Source of the DNA: Psilocybe cubensis | Lineage: Eukaryota | Length of the DNA stretch: 64,000 bases | Assembly (NCBI GenBank): GCA_017499595.2 | Contig: CM039005.1 | Span: 1,674,001 to 1,738,000 of the forward strand | Direction of reading: 5' to 3' | Shown: one piece after another, positions 36,567 to 50,238 of the stretch | Position numbering within the stretch: position 1 is the first letter of the stretch | Layout: each line of letters begins with the position of its first letter | Translations under genes and position numbers: made by a program | Notes under the pieces: generated by a model | Seen by the model: only the letters and a program-made list of their open reading frames with translations | What the model was told of the DNA's origin: nothing | Database searches by the model: none

Positions 36567-38649
36567 TCATTGAGCGTCCTGGATGATAGTGGCGGCCGCT
36601 TTTTCAGATATCATGTAGACTGCGGCAACGATGTAGAGACTAGGAATGTTTGGAAACACGCTGGCGTCCACAACTCGAAGGCCCGAGACACCTTTGACAC
36701 GGAATTTCGAGTCCAGCACAGAAGTTGTTATGTCGTCATCTGCGCCAATGGGAACTGAACAACTTGCGTGATGACCCCAGGCTTCGTCCCTAATCCATTG
36801 CTTCACGTCAGCTTCGCTTTGAATGGCTGGCCCGGGGATCTCTTCAGTGAAAAAACCGTCAAGTGGAAGTGCAGATTTGAACATCTTCCGAGCAAGCTGC
36901 ACGCCTTCGAACGACGCTTGCGCGTCAAGATCCCCGCCCACTGTATAACTCTTGAAGCTGATCTGAGGAGTATCCCTTGGGTCACTCGATCGAAGGGTGA
37001 CTGTGCCTGCGTTATTCCGACTATGAGCTTTGAGCACCAACCACGTCCAGTGCCGACTGTCGGCGTTTGTGCGATTTGAGTAGCCAGGGAAATAGCCATG
37101 GAAGTTCGCTGGTACACCTGCAATAATAATATCGGCCTCCGTCGGTGCAGAGACGCTTGTTTGCTGCACAATGCCTAACGCGTACCCATTGGATGCGTAT
37201 AGACCGTGGTCAAGCGAATTATCGCGCCATTGAATGAAGCAGGGATCATCCGTGGTGTTGAGGAATGTGCAGCCAGCTAGATCAACAAAGCCGCTGTCTG
37301 CTGAGCCAACAACGCCGACTTCGTATCTGTCCTGCATGTTGGTGCCGACCGCGGGCGAGTCGAGCACGACAGGAATATCAAACTGAGAGAGTTCATCAGC
37401 TGGACCGATACCAGAAAGCTTTAAGAGCTGTGGAGTGTTGAATGTTCCTCCCGACAAAATTACTTCGCGATTGGCGAAGAAAGTCCCGGAGCCAGTTGGA
37501 TTCGCCCCGTCAGAATTTGGATCGGCTCGGTATAGGTGGCTTCCCTGGAGATACTCCACACCTATTGCACGGGGAGTCCCAGAAGTGGAGTTGGTATCGA
37601 AGATAACCCGCGTCACAAGGGTATTGAGTTCAATGTCGAGTTTGAATTGTTTGCTGCCGTCCGCATTTACGGCATTAGCGGTGTCCAATATTAGTTTACG
37701 TTGGCTCGAACGCGTCTTGGGTCCGTTGGAAACAGAAATAGGAACCTGGTAAAGTCCTGTAGTTGTATCTCGTGTAGGTGAGTCGTTGTTGAGATCCGTA
37801 ATCAGGACTTGGGCTAAGCCGCTGAGTGTTGATAATAAACTGCCGAGTAGACCTTGACCCATCGCGGTGGCAGCGCCTTGCACAAGACTCAACACTTTCG
37901 TGTCCTTGAGAACAAGATTGAGGCTGGTGAGCGAGGTGTCAAGCCAACCAGCAAATCCATGGCCCGATGTTCCCGGCAAGACATATTGGTTGTTTTCTAA
38001 TTTCTCCCAGAATTGACGCATATTGGCAGCACTCCACGATGAGTCTCCAGTGATGGTCGCAATATTATTCCAGTCGCTTTCAGCAGGATATATCATCACC
38101 ATGGCATTGTGTTCCGCACACCCACCCAAGGTTCCTGTCCTGGGATAGTAAATCCCAAGAGGTTCGCTTCCAGCAGGAGGATTTGGGCCAACAAAGAAAC
38201 GACCATCGGGTTGCTTCCAGGTAAATTTTGAGTCGCGTTGGGCTGTTGCAGGGTCATCGTAGTGCGAGACAAAAAATTGCCAGTGAATTGGCGTATACTC
38301 GGAAGCCTGGGCGTTCAACGCAGGCACCCGAACAAAATCGTCGTCACCATTATCGTCTCCGGCATCAACCAACAGGACAGAAAAACCTGCTTGAGCTAGT
38401 CGAGCAGCCAGCGGACCCCCGCCAGGGCCAGACCCAACTATGATATAATCCCATGTATTGGTAGACGAATCATTAGCGGCACGGGGTTCTCGTTGGTTTA
38501 TTGAGGCTGCATTGACATACAGGAGGTGCCTTGGGATATATCAGACGTCTAATCTTCTTAAAACAGAGTAATTCAAGTACTCACCAACACAGAAAGTAGA
38601 TGAAGGATAAACAGGACAAGGAACCTTTGAAGCACCCCATTGCACGCAT
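36567..38649 (-). CDS. Secreted GMC oxidoreductase (CAZy AA3), one intron
   Basis: Rossmann motif WDYIIVGSGPGGGPLAARLA, YPRTGTLGGCAEHN, EVILSGGTFNTPQLLKLSGIGP, catalytic WGHHAS, GLRVVDASVFP; signal-like first exon. Confidence 0.95.
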
Positions 38650-40308
38650 TTATTCGTTGACTAGTCAAATCTAAAGAATTGACCACTCGGGTAAGCGTCA
38701 AAGAGTTACTACGATCTTATTGCTCACCGCTGGCAGATCGAGAGCAAGCCTTTCACTTAGACTCTGATACTGTCAAAGCCACGGGCGTAAACGAACAGGT
38801 TAATGGGCAGCGTGGTTTATAAAGCATCATCGCCAACTTTTTTCATGTGAGTTTGGTACAGAATAGAAATGATCAACTGCTCACCAAAGTATTCAGAATC
38901 CCGGGGTGGTCCTAATGAACGCCAAAAACTTTCTCATGGAAATCTAACCCTGACTTGACAGTAACCTAGTGTTCCAAATTTTTTCTTCGACCGAGGCATG
39001 AAAGCGAAACTCGAAAGACGAAATTAGGCGTAAAATGTGTCCTGTTCCCTGAAGTTTAGGATGAAGCCTCTGTCCATAGCACGGTTCTGAGCGCAAATAT
39101 CAGGTTATTTCTCGTGTAAATATTCCCACTATGTGTCCTAAATTCATCAGAGAAGCACCTTTCATCTTAGTATGTTTTAAGAACAGGACGCAAAACATAG
39201 CTCACAGAAGGACGTCAAAAAAACGTCAAAAAAGTCCGTTTTGCCGTCCATCTTCTATCGGTTAGAAGAGTGTAGCATGTTTGCATGATCCAAATTACGC
39301 CTGATTGCTTTCGATATGTTGTTTGAAGGTATAAAATTTGTCCCGGCTGGTAGTTGCTTGTGCCAGGATATGTACGCGTAACACAAGAGAGGCCAAGCAC
39401 GTGTCACGATTTGTTGACAGCGAAAACTTCCATTCAAATTCCCCGTTGATTGATTAGAAGCTGAGCTCTCAGCTCACATTTACCTGCCAAAATTCTACGT
39501 ATAATTCACAGTCTATTTATCTGTCCAGTGATTTTGCACCTTTTCCGGAATTACAAGTTCCTACCGCATTATAAGTAGCCAAGTGACCATATGGGCCCTT
39601 CGGTTCATTGCAAGTTTGAACTCTGATTTCCAATGGAATGACATCTCTTGTTCACTGCCAGAAAATCTCAACCCGCAGTCGGCCCTTTCGCTATGACAAA
39701 TTTTCGGTCTGAAACCATATATCTACTGCATATACATGCGTTCACGTTGAGAAATCCACTCTCGCTAAGAAATCTCATGGAACTTCCAAAGGATGCTGAG
39801 TATACAAATACAAAGCCAGGTTCGTCCAGTGTGTCCAAACTTCCACTCTGAGAGTGAAAAACTTAAATACAGCTTCTTTTGTACATGCCAGATGCACTGG
39901 AATGAGGATAATCAGTCCTCCCGTACCATCAAGTCTGAATGCATTCGAGTCCACCTTTAGATCAATTCAATTTTTATTTGACCACTAACAATGATTTCAA
40001 AGGTACCATATATGTGCCCATCATCTCAAAGGTCTCAACCGGAAATAACATGTAGTCCACATTGGGACTGCGCCATTCCTGCGGGAATTTGAGGTTGATT
40101 TAATTGTTCAAACAAGGTGTTGGATCTCTTCCGAAACCAGTGGAAACAACGGTGCAGTGACATTGACTTTCGTTAAAAGCATTGATTCAGAATTAGATTA
40201 ATCATAAATAGTACGAAAAAGCTACAATATATCAACTCAATGATATGTTGAAAAGGATACTTTAATTTCTTTTGTTACCTATAAACCACCACAAAGACGC
40301 CCCCCCTT

Positions 40309-43300
40309 CTAGACGCCGTCGTTATCTTGACCAGGATCACCGTTGGGGTTTTGGGATCCACTTCCACCTGGTTGATTGGGATTGCCCGGTTGGAACATTC
40401 TACTTTGACGATATCCGCCCCAGTTGAATGTCTGTCGTCCACAGTCATCGGGAGGATTTAAAACAAGCTGCCCACGAGTGGAGCCTGTATAGGTGTCGAG
40501 AGTCATGATTCCATTGTTGATCATGTAATTTCCGAAACGAGTCATAAGCGCTGCCCACTCATTCAAATGGTTGTCGTTGTCGTTGTCGTCTCCCGGGTAC
40601 CAGAAAAGATCGTTTTGATTACCACAGTTTAGAACTCGGGCGCGACGATTGCGATTGGGATCCTGATTGTCAACTCGCCCACGTCCGTTATTTCCCCGTC
40701 TAAATTGACCGTGGAAAGCGACGACGGCATGTATACCTGGTGCAGCGCCATGAGTAGCCGTTGCCTGTCTAATGTGATCGGTGTGGAAGTGGAAAACGAC
40801 ATAACGATCCGGATTAGTGTGTGCATCGGAAGGATTTTCGTCTTGGAAATTAGAGTTAATTCCTCCTGCCCCACTTCCAGAGGGTAGATTCCAGACGACT
40901 GATTGCGCCTCCGTTAATCAAACACATATACTATGAAGTCTGAGAAACATACCTTCAAGGATGGTTTCTTCAGATCCAGATCCTGTTGCAAGAATCATCT
41001 GCTCATATTCAATGGTCATTTGACCGTTCAGAATGGCCTCCACCATGAAACCTTATGCAATAATTTAGCTCGACAAAGAGTACAGAGTGGTAATTACTCA
41101 CCCCACGATGGTTCTCCGTCGGGCCCTGTGTTGGTTGTGTGTTCACTGTCACCCAGGTTCCTCGAAAGTAAGGAAGCCTTCTCCGATGCTGTCGAGCTGA
41201 CATTGTCAATGTTCTCAAAGCTGGTAAAGCCTCTATGCCAGAAGTCGGATGCACTCGTATCTCGTCTGCTGACCAGGTTACAGGAATTGGTGCAAACTTG
41301 GGTTCGGCTGCTATGATAGTCGGCTAAGAAGTTGATTGCATCATTCCCCATGCAAAGCAAGCTCTCCGATAGCGAAAGTTGATCCATATTTGGCCTTTAT
41401 AAATTCATGAGCATTAAGTCATTTCGTCAATAGTTGTTTATGTCAACGCACCAGTCGCCAAAGTATGAGGATATATTCGAAACAAACAGTCCATGACTCG
41501 CACCGTAGATTGTATCAAAGGCAGATTCCATTAGGTTCTGTTGATAGGTTTGACCATTTCCAGAAACGAGCTGCGTGAGCTGCTGGAGAGTTTGAGCCAT
41601 ATCAGCGTTGCTCAGTGTCGTCCGCTTGTCGAGGCGGGAGAGAATATCATCGATCTCTCTAGAGTATTGTATCTGTCCAACTTTGCAGGTTGCATCAGAT
41701 GAAAACGCCTGGATTCGCTTTGTGAAATCAGCGACTAAAGGATCATTCTAATAACCAACCATAAGCTCAAAAAACTTGTAGCAACAACGATTGGCTTACT
41801 GTAGTTGTAGGGTTGTCGCAACAGAACGCGCCATAACCTTTAGTTGATGCAACTTGTGAGAAATTTAAACGATATCGGTTCAAGGGATATACGAACCGCT
41901 CCAGCAGCCAGTAGGATCGGTTGCGATAACCGACTTTCCGGCTGGACATGTTCCAGTACAGACAAATGGAATCTGACCCAAGAATTTTCCACCATGGTAA
42001 TACCAGTCGCAATTCTCGTATGGAGGAGGTTGGTCGCAGCAGAATGACTGCGTTCGATGTTGTTGTCAGATGGGATACGGTAGCAGTTACTCTGCAACTC
42101 ACCTTGTCACCAATCGCACACGGTTGCTCACCTCCAGCGCCATAATTACTGTTCGTGAGGGCCTTTTGACCATCAGGGCATCCAGCCTGGCTGAATGGAG
42201 CAGAACAAATAGGCGCGCTTCCAGACCAATGGCACTCCGATACAGCCTGATCCGAAGCCGTCTTGAGGCAGCAGAGGACCTTATGTCCTGTCCAACATTC
42301 CGCGCCAGTTCCAGTGGTAGATGATGTAACTTCAACTTCGCCATCATGACATTTCCCGTTACAGAATGGCGCACCACCTCGCCATGTGCAAGTTGGCATG
42401 TCGTTGCTTGGGCAGCAATACAGTCGCATATCGTCGCCTGAACAGCCGGTGTTGGTCCCAGTGTTACCCCTATTCTTACCGTCGCTGCGCTGCGCAGGGC
42501 TTAACCCCGCAGGGCATGATTTACCACATTCGCCGAGCTGGCACGAGGTAATGGGGTCAGATTGTTTTGTTGCTAGAAGCGATAAAGCTTGTCGTCCAGT
42601 TGACTTGGACAAAGCACCGGCGGCATTGCCCTTCGCGTCATCCGTAGAAGAGGCCCAAACCATGGTCCCACCGAGACAGTGCGAGTTGGCGTAGTCAATC
42701 TTCATCTTGAAAGTGTCAGAATCGTCATATGATACCCATTGGTTGTTATTATATGTGACCATTTTGACGGCAGCTTTAGTATCGGTCGCGACATGGGCGC
42801 CTGCTGCGACAAGGCGTTGAATTTCGGCGAACGAGAGGGTTCCGACGGATTGGGTACATGTGCCAGCATCTCCCCCAGAAGTGAAGACACAACCAGGGGT
42901 ATTACAGCTAGGATCAGCGAGGGTAAACGAACGACCATAGAATCCAAGTCCCAGTACGACGTTGTCTGGGTTAATTTTGTTACGCCAGAGGAGAGACAAG
43001 GCTTCATCAATTTCCGTAAGATTGGTGTGGGCAGCAATGTACGGTCCCAAAAATTTGTTTGTCGAATCCCAAGTACCGTGAAGGTCATAAGACATGAGGT
43101 TGAACCAATCGATCGTCTTCTCAATGTTCACGATATCAAAGTGTTGGAGGTACCAAAACGACGATGGAATCTGAGAAAGCAGTTATTATCAGCATTGCAA
43201 CATGAGTGGAAAGGAAGTTAACGTACTGTGATCGTAAGTCCATAATTGTGCCCCGTCGAATGAAGGGCATTTCTAAGGTTCTGCAGGAAGGTGACATAGT

Positions 43301-44181
43301 TTTTGTAATCGTCGGGCTTTCCAGAGCGTTCTGGAGCTACGGGATACTCCCTACAATGATAATGAAGTTAGGAAGCAGCGGATCATACTTGAGAAAGAGA
43401 AACTAACCAATCAATGTCGACACCGTCGAAGCCGTATGTCTCCAAGAATGACAATACCGATGCAAAGAACTTGGACTGTGCATCACTCGACCCAGCAAGG
43501 TCAGAGAAAGTAGTAGCAGTAGGTTGGTCTGGATCATTCATGGACCACCCGCCAATCGAAATCCAGGTTTGAAGTCCCGGATTGGTATTTTTAAGTGCCG
43601 TAAAGCGCTTGTACAAAGCAGGGTCGGCGTCGCTCATCGGTGATAAAGCAAATGTGGTTGGGTTCTGCATTGGGAATTTTAACACAAGTTTTCATGATTA
43701 CAGAATGCAAGACACTTACGACGAAAGCAAAAGCAAAGTTCAGATGGGTGTACGAGCCAATTGGAATGCTTTCTGGATACATCTTGTCGCATGGACGAGT
43801 AACACTCCAAGCTTCATAATACCCAATGGTCCGTTTTGAAGAGCTAGATCCGCCAGAGCAAGAAGGGGCAGTTACCGTGGCATTTCCACAAAAGTCTGAT
43901 GTTGTCCCGCAGAATCCGAATTTTGAGCAGCAAACTTTTAGGGGACATTCCTCAGCGTTGGACCACTGCGCACCCCAACCGGGATCACAGTCAGACTTGC
44001 GATCGCAGTTGGATATGCAGTTCTCTGGTCCACAGGAGTCTGGGCCTAAGCCACAGGAGCCAAACTTTGTGCAACATCCAATTTCGCAAGGTTGGGTGGG
44101 ACTGCAAGTGAATTGTGCCGACGTGGCCACACTTAAAAGGAGTGCCGTCAGCCAGATTGGTGCACCGAGTGCGAGCTTCAT
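40309..44181 (-). CDS. Killer-toxin-like (subgroup C) GH18 chitinase: signal peptide, 2x CBM18/hevein, GH18, Cys-rich repeats, uncharacterised C-terminal domain
   Basis: CSPTQPCEIGCCTKFGSCG and CPLKVCCSKFGFCG (CBM18); YTHLNFAFA, ISIGGW, FDGVDIDW|EYP (intact DxDxE), NLMSYDLHG; spliced reading continues to the stop at 40309. Confidence 0.93.
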
Positions 44182-45073
44182 GGTCGACCGCTCTTTGCAA
44201 AATCTGAAGCCTTGGGATTTCGCCGATAGATGGGAGGGTTTGGTCGGCTTTCGATAAACTCATGGCCAGTGATATGTTGTAGTTTATAAGTTGCTATCAT
44301 TTCGGATTGAAAAGGTCGTAAGCTGGCTTTAGTTTGCATCTCGTCATCATGTAGACCGTCCTAAGATCTCGCACGCGACGTAATATGAAAATAACGGAGA
44401 GTACGTTGGATGAACATGTGAACGATATTTTGGGTGTTGTGTAGTATAGATCATGGTTGAGTTGACAGGAACAGGTAACGCTAATGTCACTAAACTGATC
44501 AAATTCGGCTTATAGCGGGCATATCCGTTGGCCGAACGGTTCTAAAATGACGCTCTACACGCGCTTATCATGATGTGCAACGCGAGACTCGTGGCAACTT
44601 CCAATCAACCACGACAACTATCATCTTGCAACTGCAAACTTGCGATGTATCGAGTAACTTCACGTCATGGTTGATGTGAAAATCTCTGGTCTGTGTCTAT
44701 TCTTCAGCGCTGAGCCGTTAAAACCCAAGATCCGATATCATATGTCCAAGTTTCAGACCTTCAGTAGACCGTTTTTGCCGACTGTATGACATGTTCTGGA
44801 TCTGGAATTAATCTGTAGGAGCTTTTATGTGTTCTAAAGTTACTAATCGTGCCTTCCATTGCTACTTGCAACATTACACTATGTCAATATGTTATCTCAG
44901 GATCCATTTTCTGATTCATTGACCGATTTCATCACGGATGCACAAGTGTATTTGCGACAACACTTACCCAATTTCTTTCTTACCACTTTGGGATCCCGAT
45001 AACCGTATGTATTGTGAACCTTTTTTTTTGCACACTCCATTCATCCCCCACTTTGCGTCGCGCCGGTAGTATC

Positions 45074-47247
45074 ATGTTTACTCGACTGGCCTACCCTCTG
45101 GCCTTTTCATGGATTCTGCCCCGTGTCCATGCCCAGTTCAATCTATTCGTTGATGGAACGCAGGCCGTCTCAGATATCTCACAAGGTTGCACCACAGCTC
45201 TAAACGCGACCATTAATTGCGATCCATATCTACAACAGCTGGTGTCAGACGATTATTATGGCAGTCTCAACAACGCGACCCTTCAAAATTCCGTTTGTGC
45301 AGCGTCATGTGGTATCTCTTTGAAGTCCTATCATAACACGGTTGCTTCTGCTTGTGCCAATGATCCCCAGCCTTGGGATGGTGTACCAGCCGTTTGGGCG
45401 GGAGACGTTATATGGGCGGCCTACAATCAGACATGTTTGAAAGATCCCACCACCGGAGCGTATTGTGTCGGTAAATAACTCTTCATACTCCACATCTCTA
45501 TTTTTTTGCTTTCCTAAACTCATATCGGGTTGCATAGACCAAATAGCTTCTAGTGGTGATACTGATCAAGATATTCTTGCGCTACCCCAGACCCAGTTAT
45601 GTTCCCCTTGCACCCTAGCTCTCATAAAAGTCATGCAAAGCACTCCATTCTCCAACTACGATAGCTCATACGCCCAGAAGTATGCCCAAATTCAATCTAT
45701 CTGCAACACTGGACCTCTTCCAACTGGAGCCCAACCTCCTGCCACCAATATCACTGCCCTTCCAGGAGTTGCATCCGGCAATCCAGCTAGTTCTACCTGT
45801 CTTTCTGGCAATCATTATACTGTTCAGGCTGGAGATGATCCCCAGGCAATTGCAGTCGCACATGGCGTTCCTACTGGACCTCTGAAAACCCTCAATGGAA
45901 TCTTCCCTGACGGCACTAACCTATTCGCCGGCCAAGATTTGTACGTACTCAAATTACCGTCTATGTAATGGTAATCTTTGACAATGACATTTTCTGCGAT
46001 TAGATGTCTACCTAGGACGTGTCCTATCTATCTAGTACAGGCGAATGACAACTGTGCCGCTGTCGCTTCGGCACATGGCCTCACCTTCGCACAGCTGGTT
46101 AGCTACAACCCATCGATAAACCAGGACTGCTCTAACCTTGTTTCAAATACCAATATATGTGTCGGGCCTTCTGGAGCCGAATATACCCCTACAACGATAC
46201 CTGGGGCTACTTCAACCACTTCAGGCTTTGCAATCTCCACCGTAGCCCCTCCTGGTGCCACGCCCTTCGGAACCACCCCGGAGTGCGGTAAATTCTATCA
46301 GGTCAACAGTGGAGATAACTGCCAACAAATCTCCCTTAACAACAGTATCAATGTCGATCTTTTCGAACAGATTAACCCATCGATTAATTCGGGGTGCACC
46401 AATTTGACTCCTGGTTTGTATTATTGTGTCTGGCCGCTCTCGGACTGGAATGCCACAATCACCACAACCTCCACCATTGCAACCCCTCCAGGGCCAACAC
46501 CTTCTGGCAGCACGCCCAACTGTTACCAATGGTAAGCTAGCATGCCTATCACATGGACTCCCGCTAATGTATTGAACCTACCTACATCTTCTATTTTCTT
46601 GTAAAGGCATACTATTGTTTCAGGAGACACTTGTTCAGTATTAGAAGCATCCTTCGGCATTACCATGGCTCAACTACAAACCTGGAACCCCCAGCTTAAC
46701 AATGACTGCACTAACCTTTTACTAGGCGAAGCGTAAGTTTTTCATATATGCCGGAGTTAATATTCAATTTCGGGGCTATCTGACCCTGATCCATCGGCAG
46801 CTATTGCGTTAATGGCGCAGCTCCGGGATCGTCAATCACTTCCACCCCGGCGTCTAGCACACCAACAGTCACACCGACCTCAACCCCAACGTCAACCGCT
46901 ACCGGTTCAGCCACCCCGCCAGGCCCCACGCAGGCCGGAATTGCAAGCAACTGCGATAAATACGTTCTTCAACAAGATGGTAAGTGTTGCGGTCTCTTTT
47001 AAACTCCGGGCGCTTATCAATTGACGCCGTGGGCTGTTCGATGACTTCAGGCATCTTCTGCTTTGACATGGCCAACAATGCAGGTATAACGCTGGACCAA
47101 CTGTACGCATGGAACCCTGCGTTGAATGGGGATTGTTCGGGCCTGTGGGAAGGCTATGCGTATTGCATCGGAGTGTCTTCGACGTCAGCAGCTCACAGAC
47201 GCCGTCACCAGCAGCGAGCAGTAGAACATGCTGCTGTACATTACTAA
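45074..47247 (+). CDS. Secreted LysM (CBM50) protein with N-terminal Cys-rich domain and 5 LysM repeats
   Basis: Signal peptide; LysM repeats YTVQAGDD, YLVQANDNC...YNPSI, FYQVNSGDNC...INPSI, HTIVSGDTC...WNPQL, YVLQQDGIFC...WNPAL; Thr/Pro linkers. Confidence 0.95.
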
Positions 47248-48115: not shown

Positions 48116-50238
48116 TCAGAGCTTTAAAATCTCGTCAGTATGCTAATAGAGTGCGTGTTAACTTCATAATTACGTATGTAGTAGATGAGAATCTTACCAA
48201 TGGCACAAGACTTGAGAGCTATAGATGTTGCAGTCAACGAAAGAATATACGGGTAGATCATCTTAACCGACCTTGGGGTCGGATATAACTTTACACATCT
48301 CCCGCTTTCTCTGATGAGGAGCTAAACACCGACTATGTCCCCTGAGGCTGCAACTAAGCTCGTGGCACTTGGTCTTATTAATGAAGTCGTCCATTTTCGC
48401 TTTTTGGGACTTTTGTGCCTCGTAGATTGCACTCCTTTGAAAATATTTCACATTGGTATCACACATTCTGCATGGTATTATTGAACGAACCTTGCAGCTT
48501 CCATTATTTGTGCATACGTGGGTGTCCTGTTCTCTTTCAGAAGCGCGACGATTGCCTAATGGTATGTCATGATTATTGAGCAATAGGGGACCCCTATCGT
48601 TGCTGCACGTACGGTTGTCATTGTACCTCCATCTGGTCCTTCTACGGATTGTTGAGAATCGTCGCAAGCAGAGATGGATATCTACCGCGCCAGTCATTGA
48701 GTCAGAACTTTGACGCGGAGGCCCCAAAGTAGTCATAGAGCGTACCACTTGACAACGTCTTCCACGGACTCGACGACAAAAGCCATTACATTTGGTCATT
48801 TTCGCTTCTTTAGGTTTCTTCGGCGACCTAGATGCAATATCCTTTGAACGGCTGTGATTTTTTTTGGCGGCAATCAATAGCAATCGGGAAGTTTTTACTC
48901 GCTGCTTGACTCTGTTCTTCTGCTGGGATAGAGGTTCGGTTATCACTGAGAGCAAAAAAGGTGCTAAGTATGAATTCTCTACGAGCCACGAGCTACGTGC
49001 ACATACCTTTTCGAAGTCCATTCTGAACTAGAGCAAGATAAATTGTACGTATAATTGACGATATTCATTATCAATTCTCACCAAAGCCCCTCCATCCACC
49101 AATGTGATTGCAACGTTGATGCTCAAGGTCTGTAGGATAACTTTGAGAAATGTTTCATAGATAAACTTGCCAAGGTGAGGCCTACTGAGTAGAGTCCCTG
49201 AGTGGCATGTATCGAAGAGGGCCTATAATCCAATGTTATTTTTGCAACAGACCACCAATTCAGATTAGTCCAGCTTACAGTGAGACGGGAGTGCTTGGGA
49301 AGGCAATTTACAAGATGCTCTCTCAAAGTCTATATACAATAATTATGAGCATGAGTTATGGCAGGAACAGTCCCACTGACCTTGTCGGTAATGATCCGTT
49401 CGTGATTAATGTCGGTAATGGTCCATCCATGATTCAGATACTGTACACGACATGCATCACTTGGAATAAGGACTGAAAGCGTTGATGAGTACATTTTTCC
49501 AACTACGTCGTTCTGTAGATAATGGGAAATCCGTACATTCTTCCTGGCCGTCTTCTTCTACTCCAGCAAAATCATCACGATGGAATGAATGACCTGAGTC
49601 TGTGTTCATTGTCAAAAGGATGTTTCGAACTAGATCAAAGGCAAGACATACACGCGAAGAAAAAATCGGCGTTCGAGTTGTCAGTCATACAGTTCTTTAA
49701 TTCCCTCATCTGCAAAATAGATATTACAAATGGATGTTGTGAACGGCATAAAAAGACATACGATGTTGTCGTGCGTGGGAAGCAGTTCTGTCGGTGTTCC
49801 TTGCCTATCACTTAGAATAATAAATTTCGTGTAATTAAAATCATCTGCAGTAGAGCATTAAGCCTGCTGCACTACAAAAGAATGAAAATATAACTTACTC
49901 CTCAATAAGTCCTCTAATAAGTGTATGTCTTTATGTGAACCTGTCAGCTCATATCTTCCGTCGCCACGCAAATAGCCAATGCCAATGAGAAAAGCGATTT
50001 TTTCCTTGTCGCGATGTCGGAACCTGGCCTAGATAGAACGTGTCAATATGTATAATTGTAAAGAAAACGAGAAAGAGTCGGTGCTTACTAGTGTGCGCAA
50101 ATACAAACGAAGTTTGCGAAACACTTTCGCGGTGCGTGCTGTCTGTGATACCAGCGGGACGGTGTCGGATGAGGGAGACAATGTTTGCTGCAAATCAGGA
50201 TCTTCGAGAGGCACATAATAACTGGGTGCTGTGGACAT
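48116..50238 (-). CDS. Metacaspase (peptidase C14) no. 1, multi-exon
   Basis: Spliced: KIAFLIGIGY...LTGSHKDI; PTHDNI|MREL...FFFAYSGHS; EEDGQEEFLIPSD; ALFDTCHSGTLL; ISISACDDSQQS; LSSLVPL. TATAAAA at ~50287-50293. Confidence 0.88.

Follow-up and report, generated by a model that had tools for sequence, protein, structure and literature searches.

The group-C, or "killer-toxin-like", chitinases of fungi are induced when one fungus encounters another. To our knowledge, a real toxin, a separate gamma ribonuclease, has so far been linked with their C-II subgroup only, and the C-I subgroup is without a known weapon. The gene considered here, at 40309..44181 on the minus strand of a 64,000-nucleotide (nt) stretch of Psilocybe cubensis DNA (assembly GCA_017499595.2, contig CM039005.1, positions 1,674,001 to 1,738,000; hereafter the window), encodes a group-C chitinase that ends in a domain of ~250 residues, R877-V1125. 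An earlier note, made from the DNA letters alone, had called this C-terminus an uncharacterised payload domain and a candidate toxin on a zymocin-like chitinase. The domain is possibly an antifungal toxin, because in relatives its gene usually adjoins a conserved ankyrin-repeat gene that may supply the antidote.

The closest described systems are the zymocin-like clusters, which combine a C-II chitinase bearing LysM, the C-II hallmark, with a separate gamma ribonuclease linked via a terminal cysteine and with an Imm protein (Heneghan, Salzberg & Wolfe, bioRxiv 10.1101/2024.10.25.620242; papers of the same group in GBE 2026 and mBio 2026). The preprint also describes alpha/beta processing of the zymocin precursor and a beta-gamma disulphide, and reports a LysM-only gene beside the chitinase in many such clusters. 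Some C-II chitinases also carry a cytotoxic Hce2 effector domain (mBio mGem 2026; bioRxiv 10.1101/2024.10.25.620242). Further afield, the catalogue of bacterial polymorphic toxin systems lists ankyrin-repeat immunity proteins, termed Imm-ank (Zhang et al. 2012, PMC3482391).

The Psilocybe locus shares with the zymocin-like clusters a secreted CBM18-GH18 group-C precursor, dibasic sites ahead of a C-terminal piece of ~30 kDa, a LysM-only gene alongside, a patchy spread over Ascomycota and a few Agaricales and, in relatives, a non-secreted neighbour with a possible immunity role. It differs from them in that the chitinase lacks LysM, the candidate cargo is fused rather than disulphide-linked, no separate gamma gene was seen in the lists of open reading frames (ORFs), to which the inspection was confined, and the candidate for immunity has ankyrin repeats and is not of the known Imm family. 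With the Hce2/Ecp2-fused C-II chitinases it has in common an extra, non-glycosidase, effector-type domain on a killer-toxin-like chitinase, but here the domain is C-terminal and Pfam finds no Hce2 in the window protein or in 26 family members scanned. The likeness to bacterial polymorphic toxins (PMC3482391) lies in a C-terminal cargo on a secreted carrier, varied N-terminal parts and an adjacent non-secreted ankyrin gene; the system here is nevertheless eukaryotic, with introns, no swapping of C-termini was seen on this chitinase backbone, and there is no sequence link to Tox-AHH or any listed toxin family. Among Basidiomycota, the main text of the Heneghan preprint names Panaeolus, Mycena and Trichosporon and not Psilocybe, Galerina or Hypsizygus, although its supplementary tables might list more. 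A search of the literature on killer-toxin-like chitinases, zymocin and fungal polymorphic toxins found no description of the domain or of a chitinase-ankyrin pairing. What is new here is the ankyrin-repeat neighbour of the domain, the logic of a chitinase as carrier being already known.

The chitinase gene is well defined at the level of its transcript. Contigs of runs X1 and X2 span it with nine gaps, all GT..AG on the minus strand, confirming nine introns in a reading frame of 1125 amino acids (aa). Both runs belong to one study and were taken as RNA from their spliced contigs, not from their record; the joined form is RNA-derived because the DNA runs X3 and X4 cover the stretch ungapped. 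The last two exons fill 40309-41051 of the minus strand. The first of these (40953..41051) encodes G897-E929 (MVEAILNGQMTIEYEQMIL...ETILE), a helix and the first two strands of the domain, and is conserved in all full-length homologues. The second (40309..40898) encodes the core of the domain, V930-V1125, with the stop codon at 40309-40311, as defined by its ORF, the 40898/40953 joint and the homologues. Between them lies a 54-nt intron (GTATGT...CAG; 40899..40952), spanned as a gap in the X1 and X2 contigs and retained in X3 and X4. Further upstream on the same strand come a 50-nt intron at 41052..41101 (contig joint 41049/41100, cut +2) and another at 41395..41451, again a gap with GT..AG ends in the X1 and X2 contigs. 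The peptides that the earlier note had joined across ETILE/VVWNLP lie in the minus-strand stop-to-stop ORFs at 40312-40917 (202 aa) and 40921-41052 (44 aa), and this splice is real, since the X1 and X2 contigs skip 40899-40952 and a public protein agrees. That protein, P0026 ("Chitotriosidase-1 [Psilocybe cubensis]" by its source name, 1125 aa), is 100% identical to the 202-aa exon, and its C-terminus equals the earlier spliced model exactly.

The X1 and X2 contigs also run ~30 nt past the stop codon, two of them stopping at 40279 and 40282, which places the 3' untranslated end at 40279..40308 (minus strand). The transcript therefore does not terminate ahead of these exons, the outcome that the earlier note had named as fatal to its claim, and the domain is transcribed. 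The sole variant in the last exon among the four runs is 40735 A>G, synonymous in Gly984. Just 3' of the stop codon the strains differ: X3 lacks 18 nt at 40286, and both X3 and X4 lack 3 nt at 40138.

By architecture, the carrier is not of the kind that the earlier note had supposed. In P0026, Pfam finds Chitin_bind_1 at residues 70-101 (E 2.9e-09) and Glyco_hydro_18 at residues 117-458 (E 8.9e-68), the catalytic string DGVDIDWEYP with its DxxDxDxE motif being intact at residue 234, and finds nothing after residue 458. No LysM matches P0026 at E<=0.1, LysM being seen only in the separate neighbouring gene, and the chitinase is thus C-I-like by architecture rather than of the C-II or zymocin type. 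The region between GH18 and the linker, at 41767-42760 (P0026 ~471-700), is Cys-rich and built of repeated C-x-W-x-G-x-A-P-x-C...G-x-K-x-x-C-C units without a Pfam match, and it is conserved to the same degree as GH18.

Several lines of evidence indicate that the C-terminus is a module in its own right. Its conserved part opens at 41102..41162 (minus strand) with R877-N-L-G-D-S-E ... E-P-S-W896, which in the family takes the form R-N-(L/I)-x-(D/E)-S-E, the R of RN(L/I) being present in 12/12 sequences that cover it. The earlier estimate of ~230 aa holds for G897-V1125 (229 aa) and falls slightly short of the whole module, which begins at R877 (position 41162). When 1.84 billion cluster representatives were searched by phmmer with the 202-aa exon, 25 matched at E<=1e-3 and 15 at E<=1e-10, the best at 1.3e-50, well beyond what chance would give. 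A word-indexed search yielded seven full-length chitinases of 1050-1133 aa, from P. cubensis, Galerina marginata, Hypsizygus marmoreus (two), Aspergillus pseudoviridinutans, A. turcosus and A. cristatus, along with 17 proteins of exon-like length. Most of these short entries are unnamed, those with names coming from Umbilicaria vellea, Penicillium nucicola and Aspergillus carlsbadensis, and many resemble fragments or intron read-throughs. A scan of metagenome contigs added 16 domain loci, which form 10 groups by DNA identity. The family is real, very small and, so far as names tell, fungal.

Within this family, the domain differs from that of P0026 to a like degree on two Aspergillus backbones whose other parts differ unequally. 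Relative to P0026, the A. pseudoviridinutans protein (P0030) is 76% identical in GH18, 74% in the Cys-rich middle and 38% in the linker, and the A. turcosus protein (P0031) is 52% identical in GH18 and 29% in the Cys-rich middle (its linker was not computed as one region); the C-terminal domain is 42% and 43% identical, respectively. One domain is therefore borne by two unlike chitinase backbones. It also occurs on other carriers. P0025 (615 aa) has a signal peptide and ~400 unrelated residues without a Pfam match ahead of the domain (E 3.6e-5), and a mini-gene in a metagenome contig (L009:400-1400) consists of a signal peptide, a short linker and the domain, with no GH18. The first mature residues of this mini-gene match the chitinase N-terminus and run straight on into the last part of the linker and the domain, and both intron positions found in the window recur in it; its conserved acidic terminus is in a different frame towards the 3' end, through a frameshift or a sequencing error. 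In yet another group, four near-identical contigs (L011-L013 and L015), there is no chitinase within 6 kb upstream of the domain. The copy there, at L011:5800-6640 beside an ankyrin gene, has stop codons just upstream, no clean upstream exon and no second conserved cysteine, and may be a relic in decay or a gene with a different structure. The idea of a payload on the chitinase is well served by these forms, the domain behaving as an autonomous cargo module. We regard R877-V1125 as an autonomous alpha+beta domain that could be cargo or effector rather than a chitin-cutting part, and its being a released effector or toxin module, the likeliest of the explanations weighed here, as a close call, leaning slightly towards no.

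The most suggestive context for a toxin lies beside the domain in its relatives. A single-ORF gene of ~500 aa with ankyrin repeats adjoins the domain gene in 6/9 assessable locus groups, separate by sequence and each with some 600 nt of flank or more (L002 has none). Three arrangements occur. The ankyrin gene is convergent, on the minus strand, in L010 (6884-8446), L008 (5082-6464), L007 (4798-5208) and L003 (2553-3014), being cut by the contig end in the last two; L007 and L008 form one group. It lies in tandem downstream, on the plus strand, in L014 (6659-8140) and L016 (1597-2415), and upstream, also on the plus strand, in the group of L011 and L015 (4031-5803), which includes L012 and L013. 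All of these neighbours belong to one family, with 34-40% identity over the full length between the three deepest groups (E 1e-50 to 1e-88), Pfam ankyrin repeats and shared conserved motifs outside the repeats. Their N-termini are hydrophilic, and no signal peptide is apparent by eye. A non-secreted neighbour in three arrangements, kept even in the group that lacks a chitinase within 6 kb upstream, is circumstantial evidence and fits a toxin-immunity pair. A complex predicted for the two L010 partners, ankyrin protein and domain exon, scored 0.00; it was made without alignments and with the partner fold uncertain, and speaks neither for nor against a pairing.

It is improbable, in our estimation, that the domain is instead a lineage-specific segment without separable function, its adjacency to the ankyrin gene reflecting shared ancestry or co-transfer of a block. 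The L001-related loci L003, L007/L008 and L010 are 76-83% identical in DNA, possibly close kin, and the sampling is small, all of which would suit such an explanation. The neighbour nonetheless persists at 34-40% ankyrin identity and in three arrangements, and both genes are under purifying selection. In a comparison of L010 with L008, the ratio of nonsynonymous to synonymous substitution rates (dN/dS; Nei-Gojobori method, NG86) was 0.47 in the domain, against 0.41 in the chitinase part and 0.22 in the ankyrin gene, crude values from a single pair with dS of 0.7-0.84, near saturation, and without a hint of positive selection on the domain. Values of 0.22 and 0.18 for the ankyrin family indicate purifying selection, and the domain is constrained, under loose purifying selection, yet fast-evolving. 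Its invariant polar residues likewise argue for a specific function.

These residues are best seen in an alignment of 35 members (A2), in P0026 numbering. G984, H992, Q994, R1004, R1015 and Y1030-P1031-G1032 are invariant (35/35 for each of H992, Q994, R1004, R1015 and YPG), and D960 (34/34) and D1006 (32/35) nearly so. Also near-invariant is the string H966-F-H968-T-D970-H971 ("FHFHTDH"; 40774..40791, minus strand), with H966 in 34/34, H968 in 33/34, D or E at 970 in 31/34 and H971 in 33/34, which lies within a long predicted beta strand. The polar cluster H992, Q994, R1004, D1006 and R1015 (AFHGQ ... RVD ... R) is encoded at 40642..40713 (minus strand). The His and Arg residues that the earlier note had picked out thus rank among the most conserved positions of the family. 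The only cysteines after the second candidate processing site (site B, below), C1021 (34/35) and C1082 (33/33), are encoded within 40441..40626 (minus strand) and are presumed to pair, and the domain is probably held by this one disulphide. The protein ends in a Gly/Pro/Asn-rich tail with an acidic ...QDNDGV terminus (40312..40386, minus strand), D-N-D-G-V/I in most aligned members, for which the predicted local distance difference test score (pLDDT) falls below 50. The ...QDNDGV/I terminus is kept from Agaricales to Aspergillus and lichen fungi, and, with its acidic charge near an Arg/His-rich conserved site, it could be auto-inhibitory or a sorting signal.

AlphaFold2 modelled the exon alone with a pLDDT of 68.8 and a predicted template modelling score (pTM) of 0.64. 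The model of a relative, P0006, including the preceding exon, reached a pLDDT of 74.3 with 112 residues at pLDDT>=90, and the preceding exon in the input lifted the pTM from 0.64 to 0.79. The P0006 model comprises a helix, four long antiparallel strands, more short strands and a long helix. Enzymes that bind a phosphate or other anionic group typically have a set of His, Asp, Gln and Arg residues such as that conserved here. A metal-dependent enzyme acting on nucleic acid, as the earlier note had proposed, fits the conserved set and nothing more, and is a guess. H966-x-H968-x-D970-H971 recalls HxHxDH, the metallo-beta-lactamase motif. No Pfam or PDB profile or fold lends that identity support; the fold searches returned only scraps of 27-31 columns at E about 8, and the motif sits in one long strand within a different predicted architecture. 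As for the His-Me finger nucleases (AHH, GH-E, HNH), Pfam gives no match, the model has no helix after the His-bearing hairpin, and the only hints are ESM Atlas leads at 0.78-0.80 (AHH and GH-E clusters at 0.78-0.79), below the noise level of the tool.

The same conserved residues could alternatively form the ligand site of a non-toxic accessory domain, one that binds a wall polymer (e.g., an anionic glycan or phosphomannan) or has a regulatory or auto-inhibitory role. In keeping with this, the invariant aromatic residues F991, Y1030 and F1051 adjoin the polar residues, and no immunity-like gene is present at the Psilocybe locus. A search of the ESM Atlas with residues 880-1100 gave a first match at 0.83, which is noise level, and the next clusters are of bacterial "chitin-binding protein", but at 0.83, a value often reached by shuffled proteins. 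The enzyme to which the domain is fused already carries CBM18 modules, a point that can be counted in favour of binding. Against this, the domain is missing from the great bulk of GH18 chitinases (the 25 matches among 1.84 billion representatives), occurs without a chitinase in L009, P0025 and the L011 group, and has a conserved cytosolic ankyrin neighbour that is hard to square with wall binding. Moreover, the fold searches matched no carbohydrate-binding fold. Taken together, an accessory role is unlikely, though well within what is conceivable.

In the toxin interpretation the domain would be released, and two dibasic sites offer candidate points of cleavage. Site A, K741-R742 (41622..41627, minus strand), is present in 7/7 full-length homologues, and site B, R842-R843 (41262..41267, minus strand), a candidate Kex2-type site, is KR or RR in 10/12 covering sequences, KR in most; the linker around both is otherwise fast-evolving. 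A cut at site B would free a C-terminal piece of ~31 kDa with two cysteines and would parallel the alpha/beta processing of the zymocin precursor (bioRxiv 10.1101/2024.10.25.620242). An additional dibasic site, S-S-S-K-R, lies at 43836-43841 (residues ~112-117) between the chitin-binding modules and GH18 and is shared by 6/7 full-length homologues, so that processing might yield more than two pieces.

The same piece, of ~31 kDa and lying behind a dibasic site at the C-terminal end of a killer-toxin-like chitinase precursor, could by its place and size be likened to the zymocin beta-subunit, in which case it would dock and import a separately encoded small gamma-toxin, and the LysM-only neighbour, as found in many zymocin-like clusters, would be in keeping with this. 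This equivalence appears distinctly improbable. Only two cysteines follow site B, both near-invariant, and therefore none is obviously free for a partner; C1021 and C1082 are likely to pair with each other. No small-secreted-protein-like ORF stands out beside the gene in the ORF lists, which alone were inspected, and the X1 and X2 contigs give no cover over 39800-40261. The chitinase is C-I-like, whereas all described clusters use C-II, and a HMMER search linked the domain to none of the many C-II chitinase C-termini.

Returning to the domain and its ankyrin neighbour as a possible toxin and antidote, a number of observations weigh against that interpretation. Expression of the domain is seen in the assembled contigs of a single study, which are silent on expression level. 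An ankyrin homologue is absent from the whole window (tblastn E<1; hmmsearch --max over six frames), and the gene is not in the flanks of L001 (1451 nt), L004-L006 (623 nt for L006) or L009. Ankyrin genes are common in fungi, some of the ankyrin-bearing loci may be close kin, and a co-transferred cassette could keep neighbours together without any immunity role. The HxHxDH string is not strict, with R, Q or H as a substitute in 1-3 members, and the R1004/D1006 loop is poorly modelled in both AlphaFold2 models, so that a spatial clustering of the conserved residues remains putative. The dN/dS of the domain is below 1 and not above that of the chitinase part, so that this single pair gives no hint of an arms race. 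The swapping of C-termini that the earlier note had looked to was not seen either: a word-based search of limited reach with the linker (residues 690-900) found the same domain in 4/4 linker-sharing proteins, as did the comparison of 7/7 full-length homologues. Finally, the domain has no match in Pfam, NCBIfam or PDB sequences by single-sequence and profile searches, none in PDB by Foldseek with either AlphaFold2 model at E<=0.001 and none in BFVD; in these searches it resembles no known toxin and no nuclease or other enzyme, whether in sequence or in fold. The same empty searches bear out the word uncharacterised. The earlier view of a payload and candidate toxin is partly supported, and gains strength from the ankyrin neighbour, from the conserved dibasic sites and from the forms that stand free of a chitinase.

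With these points weighed, the domain and its ankyrin neighbour may tentatively be read together as an undescribed fungal toxin-immunity pair, a reading that is possible and somewhat doubtful. The toxin, with a fold not among solved structures, would be carried as a fusion by a C-I-type killer chitinase and released from it, or be made on its own as a small secreted protein. Eurotiales, lichen-forming fungi and a few Agaricales would have exchanged the cassette, and Psilocybe would have kept the toxin-bearing chitinase without a linked immunity gene. As for the mechanism proposed for the domain as a released effector, a signal peptide would take the precursor into the secretory pathway, where a Kex2-type protease would cut at K741-R742 and R842-R843. 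The CBM18 and GH18 parts would attach to the chitin wall of a rival fungus and breach it, and the ~31 kDa C-terminal piece would act on or in the target cell via a pocket formed by H966, H968, D970, H971, H992, Q994, R1004, D1006 and R1015. In relatives, the cytosolic ankyrin-repeat protein from the adjoining gene would neutralise the domain in the producer; at the Psilocybe locus this gene is absent.

The surroundings of the chitinase gene are of some interest in themselves. A LysM-only gene, of the kind that usually accompanies group-C chitinases, is transcribed divergently from it at 44915..47247 (plus strand), with Pfam LysM in the ORFs at 45441-45968 and 45975-46535. L010 (540-2540) has the same two genes head to head, with 62-68% protein identity to the window. 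Downstream of the chitinase gene lies a GMC oxidoreductase (36567-38540). An ORF at 48263-49027 was dismissed as a neighbour gene, being a low-complexity chance frame. The identity of the Psilocybe chitinase to P0030, given above for GH18 and the Cys-rich middle, is very high for a comparison of Basidiomycota with Ascomycota, and the spread of the family, over three Agaricales genera, Eurotiales and one lichen fungus, is patchy; together the two suggest horizontal transfer.

If the toxin-immunity interpretation is true, the C-I chitinases would acquire a mechanism, namely a fused cargo that comes with a candidate antidote. This would also bring to fungal warfare a new toxin fold and a eukaryotic immunity protein of the ankyrin type, and would offer an antifungal protein that can be put to the test. 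Should the domain prove to be a binding module instead, it would still represent a new domain family on a well-studied class of enzymes.

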